1,930 bases of DNA, taken from Escherichia coli (GTDB lineage: Bacteria; Pseudomonadota; Gammaproteobacteria; Enterobacterales; Enterobacteriaceae). Where the stretch lies: assembly GCF_003334785.1 (NCBI RefSeq), contig NZ_QOWV01000058.1; one strand, given 5' to 3'. The notes beneath the pieces are model-generated. The model worked only from the letters and a program-made list of their open reading frames with translations, ran no database searches and was not told the origin of the DNA. A program made the position numbers and the translations under genes. This document shows, one piece after another, positions 160 through 1,930 of the stretch (position 1 is its first letter; each line of letters begins with the position of its first letter).

Positions 160-267
160 ACAGATTTTGGTGACTGCGCTCCTCCAAGCCAGTTACCTTG
201 GTTCAAAGAGTTGGTAGCTCAGCGAACCTTGAGAAAACCACCGTTGGTAGCGGTGGTTTTTCTTTAT
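160..267 (+). ncRNA. RNAI: Antisense copy-number control RNA I (about 108 nt) of a ColE1-family replicon
   Basis: Starts ACAGATTTTGGTGACTGCGCT as in ColE1-family RNA I. It ends in a stem-loop ACCACCG-ttggtag-CGGTGGT followed by a T-run, and the length matches the canonical 108 nt. Confidence 0.85.
237..266 (+). terminator. RNA I intrinsic terminator (third stem-loop plus U-tract)
   Basis: Perfect 7-bp stem ACCACCG (237-243) / CGGTGGT (251-257) with a 7-nt loop, immediately followed by TTTTTCTTT. Confidence 0.75.
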
Positions 268-274
268 TTATGAG

Positions 275-303
275 ATGATGAATCAATCGGTCTATCAAGT
301 CAA
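275..303 (-). promoter_or_regulatory. RNA II (replication primer) promoter
   Basis: On the - strand: -35 TTGACT (+ coords 298-303), 17-nt spacer, -10 CATCAT (+ coords 275-280), predicted start near 268. It sits where the RNA II promoter lies in ColE1-type replicons. Confidence 0.6.
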
Positions 304-323
304 CGAACAGCTATTCCGTTGAC
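299..323. repeat. 7-bp perfect inverted repeat GTCAACG-(11 nt)-CGTTGAC spanning the -35 elements of two divergent promoters
   Basis: GTCAACG at 299-305 and its reverse complement CGTTGAC at 317-323, read directly from the sequence. Confidence 0.8.
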
Positions 324-347
324 AAAAAAACAAGATCTGTACATATT
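319..347 (+). promoter_or_regulatory. Candidate sigma70 promoter for the toxin-antitoxin operon
   Basis: -35 TTGACA at 319-324, 17-nt spacer, -10 CATATT at 342-347, flanked by A7/A6 tracts. A weak SD-like ACGGA lies at 359-363, 8 nt before the ATG at 372. An in-frame stop at 279-281 with no intervening start codon fixes 372 as the start. Confidence 0.5.
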
Positions 348-371
348 CAAAAAAAACAACGGATTGACCCA

Positions 372-1412
372 ATGGCACAGAACCCGTTTAAAGCACTAAA
401 TATCAATATTGACAAGATTGAGTCTGCTCTGACGCAGAATGGCGTCACAAACTATTCCTCTAATGTAAAAAACGAAAGAGAAACTCACATATCTGGCACA
501 TATAAAGGAATAGACTTCTTAATAAAACTAATGCCATCAGGCGGAAATACCACTATCGGAAGAGCGTCTGGGCAAAATAACACTTACTTTGATGAAATCG
601 CCTTGATTATAAAAGAAAACTGTTTGTATTCAGACACAAAGAACTTTGAATACACCATTCCAAAATTCAGTGATGATGACAGGGCAAATCTATTTGAATT
701 TCTTTCTGAAGAGGGGATAACAATAACAGAAGATAATAATAACGATCCTAATTGTAAACACCAATATATTATGACCACCAGCAATGGTGACAGGGTCAGG
801 GCAAAAATTTACAAGCGCGGCTCTATTCAATTCCAAGGAAAATACCTTCAAATCGCGAGTTTGATTAACGATTTCATGTGCTCAATACTAAACATGAAAG
901 AGATTGTCGAACAAAAAAATAAAGAATTTAATGTTGACATAAAAAAAGAAACTATTGAGTCCGAGTTGCATAGCAAACTACCAAAAAGCATCGATAAAAT
1001 CCATGAAGATATCAAAAAACAGCTATCATGCTCGCTAATAATGAAAAAAATAGATGTCGAAATGGAAGATTACTCAACATACTGCTTCTCTGCATTAAGA
1101 GCCATAGAAGGCTTTATATATCAAATACTTAATGATGTTTGCAATCCATCATCATCAAAGAACCTTGGCGAATACTTCACTGAAAACAAACCCAAATATA
1201 TAATCAGAGAAATACACCAAGAAACTATAAATGGTGAAATAGCGGAAGTTTTGTGTGAATGCTACACTTACTGGCATGAGAACAGGCATGGTTTGTTTCA
1301 TATGAAACCAGGAATAGCTGACACGAAGACAATTAACAAATTAGAATCAATCGCAATCATCGATACCGTTTGCCAATTAATAGATGGTGGCGTAGCTAGG
1401 TTGAAATTATGA
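372..1412 (+). CDS. rnlA: RnlA/LsoA-family endoribonuclease toxin (RNase LS-like, HEPN-type), 346 aa
   Basis: Long ORF starting at the first ATG after an in-frame stop. C-terminal motif ENRHGLFHM (R305-x4-H310) fits the HEPN R-[NHD]-x3-H signature. LRAIEG (aa 242-247), GEYF (aa 266-269) and the R-H-x-LFHM block match my recollection of RnlA/LsoA. A downstream 126-aa partner overlaps by ATGA, as in rnlAB/lsoAB. Family call is from memory, not a database search. Confidence 0.7.
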   Translation: MAQNPFKALNINIDKIESALTQNGVTNYSSNVKNERETHISGTYKGIDFLIKLMPSGGNTTIGRASGQNNTYFDEIALIIKENCLYSDTKNFEYTIPKFSDDDRANLFEFLSEEGITITEDNNNDPNCKHQYIMTTSNGDRVRAKIYKRGSIQFQGKYLQIASLINDFMCSILNMKEIVEQKNKEFNVDIKKETIESELHSKLPKSIDKIHEDIKKQLSCSLIMKKIDVEMEDYSTYCFSALRAIEGFIYQILNDVCNPSSSKNLGEYFTENKPKYIIREIHQETINGEIAEVLCECYTYWHENRHGLFHMKPGIADTKTINKLESIAIIDTVCQLIDGGVARLKL

Positions 1413-1789
1413 AAAAAGATAAAAAATATCAAATAGAAGCAATAAAAAATAAAGATAAAACTTTATTTATTGTCTATGCTACTGATATTTATAGCCCGAG
1501 CGAATTTTTCTCAAAAATCGAATCCGACTTGAAGAAAAAGAAAAGCAAGGGTGATGTTTTTTTTGATTTAATAATTCCTAACGGTGGAAAAAAAGATCGT
1601 TACGTCTATACGTCATTTAATGGCGAGAAGTTTTCAAGTTACACATTAAACAAAGTTACGAAAACTGATGAATATAATGATTTATCTGAGCTCTCGGCTT
1701 CGTTCTTTAAAAAAAACTTTGATAAGATCAACGTAAACCTTCTATCCAAAGCCACATCATTTGCTTTGAAAAAAGGCATTCCAATATAA
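1409..1789 (+). CDS. rnlB: RnlB/LsoB-family antitoxin, 126 aa, lysine-rich
   Basis: ATG at 1409 overlaps the upstream TGA (ATGA), with an AGG SD-like element at 1398-1400. Size and position match the RnlB/LsoB antitoxin encoded downstream of its toxin. The segment GDVFFDLIIPNGG resembles a remembered RnlB segment. No MNT (GSxxxG/DxD) or HTH motif is evident. Confidence 0.6.
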   Translation: MKKDKKYQIEAIKNKDKTLFIVYATDIYSPSEFFSKIESDLKKKKSKGDVFFDLIIPNGGKKDRYVYTSFNGEKFSSYTLNKVTKTDEYNDLSELSASFFKKNFDKINVNLLSKATSFALKKGIPI

Positions 1790-1805: not shown

Positions 1806-1834
1806 ATTTACCATAACGTCTCATTACGCGCACC
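1806..1834 (-). other. cer-like XerC/XerD site-specific recombination core (plasmid multimer resolution site)
   Basis: The - strand reads GGTGCGCGTAA-TGAGACG-TTATGGTAAAT. The right arm is identical to the ColE1 cer XerD arm TTATGGTAAAT, and the left arm differs from the dif XerC arm GGTGCGCATAA at one position. The central region is 7 bp. Accessory (ArgR/PepA) sequences would lie at higher coordinates and run off the window. Confidence 0.6.
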
Positions 1835-1930
1835 GCCAAAACGCGCTGAACGCGATTCTGACGCAGACACCGCAAAAAGAGATGTTTTCCCCGGGGTAAA
1901 CCGGAAAAATGCGTCAGGATCGCTTTCAGC

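Follow-up and report, generated by a model that had tools for sequence, protein, structure and literature searches.

A probable cer-family multimer resolution site beside lsoAB on the Escherichia coli O157:H7 plasmid pOSAK1

Described Xer sites and the core in pOSAK1

Amongst described plasmid sites for the recombinases XerC and XerD (xrs), the one closest to that considered here belongs to NTP16, a plasmid of Salmonella Typhimurium (NC_002090), which is listed under 'xrs previously characterized' in Supplementary file 1 of Fournes et al. (NAR 2025, PMC11724359), parsed into GGTGCGCGTAA, TGAGACG and TTATGGTAAAT, with an ArgR-type accessory sequence printed beside it and the box marked. The same catalogue comprises 185 unique xrs, of which 13 are 30 bp long and 27 are 29 bp long, the rest being of 28 bp, and at each of these three lengths recombination depends on an accessory sequence and its proteins (Fournes, PMC11724359). 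Three further reference sites frame the comparison: cer of ColE1, at positions 3909-3938 of NC_001371; psi of pSC101, likewise a plasmid Xer site dependent on an accessory sequence and PepA; and dif of E. coli, a site of 28 bp built from a XerC and a XerD arm, activated by FtsK and without an accessory sequence.

The DNA analysed here (the window, 1,930 nucleotides) matched pOSAK1 at 100% identity over all 1930 bases in a megablast search of a plasmid collection. Carried by E. coli O157:H7 Sakai, pOSAK1 is 3306 bp long (AB011548.2 / NC_002127), and the window is the minus strand of positions 830-2759 in that record. Equally good matches were obtained to dozens of identical plasmids of 3306 bp, found in O157 and in other strains. 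Where plasmid positions are needed they follow the numbering used for pOSAK1 in this work, L001, in which window position 1806 is L001 2353. RefSeq annotation of the identical plasmids places the toxin gene lsoA at window 372..1412 and the antitoxin gene lsoB at 1409..1789, both on the plus strand. Together they lie in an AT-rich cargo segment of which lsoB is the last gene. Downstream of lsoB, on the opposite strand, lies a gene named mobA in RefSeq and nikA in another record and in the literature. The replicon is of ColE1 type, with RNAI at window 162-265 on the plus strand (83.7 bits, Rfam), which puts RNAII on the minus strand.

The window contains a single copy of the 29-mer GGTGCGCGTAATGAGACGTTATGGTAAAT, located on the minus strand at 1806-1834, where it reads GGTGCGCGTAA-TGAGACG-TTATGGTAAAT, an 11-7-11 core that has the two 11-bp arms and the spacer of 6-8 bp typical of Xer sites. 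The degenerate Xer pattern GGTGCGNNNAA-N6-8-TTATGKTAAAT has its sole match at the same position, against none expected from shuffled sequence. The XerD-binding arm TTATGGTAAAT (1806..1816, minus strand) agrees with that of ColE1 cer at 11/11 positions, just as the first-pass annotation of this DNA had claimed, and is unchanged in all eight aligned relatives and in 19/19 divergent sites. The central, strand-exchange region TGAGACG (1817..1823, minus strand) is delimited both by alignment with ColE1, which requires a 1-nt gap, and by the NTP16 parse; among the relatives it reads TGAGACG, GGAGACG or TGCGACG (7 bp), or TTAAGGGA (8 bp). The XerC-binding arm GGTGCGCGTAA (1824..1834, minus strand) is the published XerC arm of NTP16, and matches dif and psi at 10/11 positions and cer at 8/11. 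The lsoB stop codon ends at 1789 and, after a gap of 16 nt, the site begins at the 17th base, so that its placement directly downstream of the antitoxin gene, 17 bp past the stop, is as first described.

With its 7 bp the spacer does lie between those of dif and cer in length, but it is not unusual. The idea of a novel intermediate spacer was rejected: NTP16 carries the identical site and, with 27 of the 185 unique catalogued xrs at 29 bp, central regions of 7 bp are a common form in nature and no oddity. Indeed, no difference from NTP16 was found anywhere in the site: over ~270 bp, from the accessory sequence through the core and into lsoB, identity is 100%, and the two plasmids align at 98.2% over the full length of pOSAK1. 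NTP16 additionally carries Tn3-derived blaTEM and IS26-aphA1 insertions elsewhere, and pOSAK1 amounts to an NTP16 backbone stripped of resistance transposons. Supplementary file 2 of the same catalogue enters pOSAK1 itself (NC_002127), with an xrs at 926, strand 1, type ArgR (PMC11724359), and position 926 of that record is window 1834. The site is thus already known, having been catalogued both for NTP16 and for pOSAK1.

Comparison with the other reference sites follows the same lines. ColE1 cer shares with pOSAK1 the XerD arm, the position of the accessory sequence on the XerC side, a conserved block adjacent to the core and the orientation to RNAII; it differs in an 8-bp central region (TTAAGGGA) as against 7 bp, at 3/11 positions of the XerC arm, and in the ArgR box, which is TGCATAGGTATTCA in ColE1 and TGCATAGCTATGCA in pOSAK1. 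In global alignment the two share only about 50% identity over the accessory sequence and about 53% over the whole unit, and pairwise blastn at word size 11 misses the homology, so the case for common descent with ColE1 rests on conserved blocks, on spacing and on intermediates in the plasmid database. pSC101 psi departs from pOSAK1 in its 6-bp central region, in an ArcA rather than an ArgR box and in its XerD arm, TTATGTTAAAC. Other 29-bp xrs, among them those of pCGB40, pMNCRE44_5, pLST424C-10 and pAPEC-078-3, resemble that of pOSAK1 in their 7-bp spacer, mostly TG.G.CG-like, in their ArgR-type accessory sequence, and in a XerC arm that is GGTGCGCGTAA or little changed from it; they differ in the letters of that accessory sequence and in cargo.

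The accessory sequence and its possible secondary roles

An ArgR/PepA-type accessory sequence adjoins the XerC arm. The part within the window (1835..1930, minus strand; 96 bp) is 100% identical to that of NTP16, and the whole, of ~150 bp, continues past the window end to ~1981 (L001 2528). Its extent was gauged by a sensitive blastn search of the 239-bp intergenic region, which matched 3,082 plasmid records; the matches typically begin at ~L001 2518-2530 and finish at the XerD arm, and therefore delimit a unit of core plus accessory sequence of ~176 bp (L001 2353-2528; window 1806 to ~1981). In the relatives L009 and L010 the left homology boundary is L001 2528. The sequence on the XerC side aligns with the blocks of ColE1 cer, namely the ArgR box, the T-tracts and a conserved core-proximal block. 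The ArgR box itself, TGCATAGCTATGCA, falls at window-equivalent 1935-1948, five bases beyond the window end; it is a perfect palindrome (TGCATAG/CTATGCA) and stands 100 bp from the XerC arm, as against 99 bp in ColE1 cer. The search for ArgR and PepA accessory sequences that the first-pass annotation had proposed is therefore positive, with cer-type homology and an ArgR box at the ColE1 spacing. In ColE1-like plasmids the site and RNAII point the same way in all cases examined (Rozhon et al. 2010), and so they do here, the site lying on the minus strand in the direction of RNAII.

Two features of the accessory sequence may bear on transcription. Firstly, it holds at window 1886-1909 (L001 2433-2456), on the minus strand, along which nikA/RNAII transcription runs, a hairpin resembling a terminator, made up of TTTTTCCGGTTTACCCCGGGGAAA and a T-rich tail. 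The hairpin overlaps the palindrome GTTTTCCCCGGGGTAAAC, and might either end transcripts ahead of the core or be no more than one of the phased T-tracts. Secondly, a 21-nt inverted repeat has its core-proximal arm at 1845..1865 (L001 2392-2412) and its ArgR-box-proximal arm at 1910..1930 (L001 2457-2477), the two being 90% complementary, with the dyad centred at equal distances from the middle of the ArgR box and from the XerC arm. When 19 divergent accessory sequences from the supplement of Fournes et al. (PMC11724359) were aligned, RNAalifold recovered an equivalent helix. Across the 19 sequences 81.5% of cells were paired, compared with 66.6% in shuffles and 35-53% when the partner was slid, and changes on both sides were seen in 10/10 pairs; this covariation is suggestive only, since the test, made on related sequences and on the alignment that had itself yielded the structure, is biased in favour of it. 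Plus-strand RNA over the dyad folds at -45.6 kcal/mol (z = -4.8). No description of the dyad was found in the open-access papers searched.

On this basis the accessory sequence might be maintained as a base-paired element as well as a track for protein wrapping, a reading that we hold to be unlikely. If it were so, the dyad could form a strong hairpin in transcripts crossing the site, whether by read-through from lsoAB or from RNAII/mob, and thereby insulate the XerCD-bound core from transcription; alternatively, it could act as extruded DNA. More speculatively still, a promoter in the core, activated in dimers, might yield an RNA antisense to the 3' end of lsoB and so link dimer sensing to the toxin.

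An Rcd checkpoint of ColE1 type would consist of a promoter, Pcer, overlapping the XerC arm, and of a conserved RNA of ~70 nt, Rcd, transcribed rightwards within the site. An equivalent is not evident in pOSAK1. The putative -10 hexamer of ColE1 Pcer, placed by inspection at TACAAT, aligns with CGTAAT in pOSAK1, and the right flank of the XerD arm, where an Rcd-like RNA would be encoded, is unconserved among the relatives. A promoter scan for a Pcer equivalent was negative, as was its ColE1 control; an Rfam search for an Rcd homologue gave no match in pOSAK1 or in the ColE1 control, Rfam holding no Rcd model. The predicted fold of a candidate RNA that leads from the central region to within lsoB is no better than those of shuffled sequences (z = -0.11), and the relatives do not preserve an 8-bp stem that would pair the central region with the right flank.

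The core as a cargo junction and its toxin-antitoxin neighbour

Six related plasmids were compared with pOSAK1. Homology to five of them ends at window 1805/1806 (L001 2352/2353), where the XerD arm has its outer edge. The blast match to the sixth, pKGu016_6, breaks off at L001 2376, within the XerC arm, since this plasmid has a different XerC arm and central region; even so, it retains an identical XerD arm. Away from the core, homology also extends upstream through nikA (mobA) in four of the six. What lies past the XerD arm is unrelated from one plasmid to the next, and includes aphA1, a RelE-type toxin-antitoxin system, a putative adhesin, AbiE and unnamed ORFs. The composition of the plasmid changes at the same place, with a GC content of ~30-37% in the lsoAB segment (window ~267-1805) against ~45-58% in the ori/nikA backbone; at the Xer core itself the step is to a backbone value of ~50-54%. 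The core is therefore a junction at which different cargo is joined to a conserved backbone of nikA (mobA) and accessory sequence, the cargo of pOSAK1 being lsoAB.

The cores themselves are mosaic. GGTGCGCGTAA is found with TGAGACG and, in relative L006, with TTAAGGGA; the latter also occurs with GGTGCGTACAA, and GGTGCGCGCAA is joined to GGAGACG or TGCGACG. Past Xer recombination between heterologous sites most simply explains both the mosaic cores and the exchange of cargo, and the pattern fits the published description of the NTP16 group, in which LsoAB is carried by 10 of 48 plasmids (Branger et al. 2019).

As for the genes that flank the site, a search of the interval from lsoB to the core gave no terminator on the plus strand, and read-through of lsoAB transcription into the core is for that reason possible, in keeping with the earlier suggestion that such transcripts would cross the recombination site. 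The proximity of gene and site was considered as an unusual feature and rejected. In ColE1, likewise, a gene converges on the XerD side of cer, the exc2 CDS (3943-4362, minus strand) ending 5 bp from the XerD arm, so the layout of lsoB and site is not special. LsoAB is known as an anti-phage toxin-antitoxin pair, and we know of no demonstration that it stabilises a plasmid; the picture of cer and a toxin-antitoxin module as two stability functions side by side is accordingly an assumption.

Several incidental observations concern the two genes themselves. A strong sigma-70-like promoter can be picked out by eye just 5' of lsoA (TTGACA, 17 nt, CATATT), beginning at window 321 and close to where the opposite-strand RNAII promoter is expected (region window 300-371). 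The lsoA stop and lsoB start share 4 nt (ATGA, window 1409-1412), an overlap that suggests translational coupling of toxin and antitoxin. In the 1992 sequence of NTP16 (2745-3790) the lsoA frame is broken into two ORFs, of 246 and 129 aa, with 10 gap openings relative to pOSAK1, and lsoB alone of the pair appears in the plasmid gene table; the break reflects either errors in the old sequencing or a toxin gene that is truly a pseudogene.

Dimer resolution, its alternatives and what the site explains

Taken as a cer-type site, the locus would work as follows. A plasmid dimer formed by recombination would carry two directly repeated copies of the site; host ArgR and PepA would bind the ~150-bp accessory sequences of both and interwrap them; strand exchange by XerC and XerD, bound to their 11-bp arms, would follow across the 7-bp central region, with XerC acting first and FtsK not required. 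Dimers would thereby be returned to monomers, and the multicopy plasmid would be protected from dimer catastrophe. Dependence on XerC, XerD, ArgR and PepA, and the order of strand exchange, are what membership of the cer family would predict.

The most serious alternative is that of an inactive relic: a site once used by the Xer recombinases, which marks an old cargo join and no longer resolves dimers. There is precedent in the pPCP plasmids of Yersinia, where ArgR-type accessory sequences adjoin an xrs that 'appears inactive' (Fournes, PMC11724359). In pOSAK1, however, both arms are intact (XerD 11/11; XerC 10/11 to dif), as are the ArgR box and its spacing; a 34-mer spanning the core is kept at >=95% identity in 151 plasmids of several genera (Escherichia, Salmonella, Klebsiella and Enterobacter); and the identical site of NTP16 is listed as characterised. 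The literature searched contained no recombination assay of the pOSAK1 copy. On balance a relic is very unlikely.

Still less probable is that recombination is under FtsK control, as at dif, rather than achieved through accessory proteins. The XerC arm is indeed nearer to dif (10/11) than to cer (8/11), but a dif-type site is 28 bp long, with a 6-bp spacer and no accessory sequence, whereas that of pOSAK1 is 29 bp long, has an ArgR-type accessory sequence and sits on a 3.3-kb multicopy plasmid; moreover, use of FtsK has been shown for 28-bp sites only, and sites lacking accessory sequences are almost confined to large replicons (Fournes, PMC11724359). A chance resemblance without function was rejected as next to impossible, given that neither the exact 29-mer (200 shuffles) nor the degenerate pattern was matched in shuffled sequence and that the homology of ~176 bp extends to thousands of plasmid records.

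The locus is thus very probably, as judged from its sequence, a member of the cer family and the site at which ColE1-type plasmids of the NTP16/pOSAK1 group resolve their multimers. In this respect the first-pass annotation of a cer-like XerCD resolution site is upheld by the core, by the accessory sequence, by the spacing of the ArgR box and by identity to the published NTP16 site, and the orientation to the origin agrees with it. It is worth noting that nothing is hereby added to Xer biology, as the site, its 7-bp spacer and the cargo-junction pattern have all been published. The use of the result is one of annotation, given that the GenBank and RefSeq records examined do not list an Xer site, the plasmid gene tables used being ones that omit miscellaneous features. 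For the biology of these plasmids, the site would explain two things: 1) the monomeric state of a 3.3-kb multicopy plasmid of E. coli O157:H7; and 2) the position of its lsoAB cargo, with the Xer core as the junction at which cargo is swapped within the NTP16 plasmid group.
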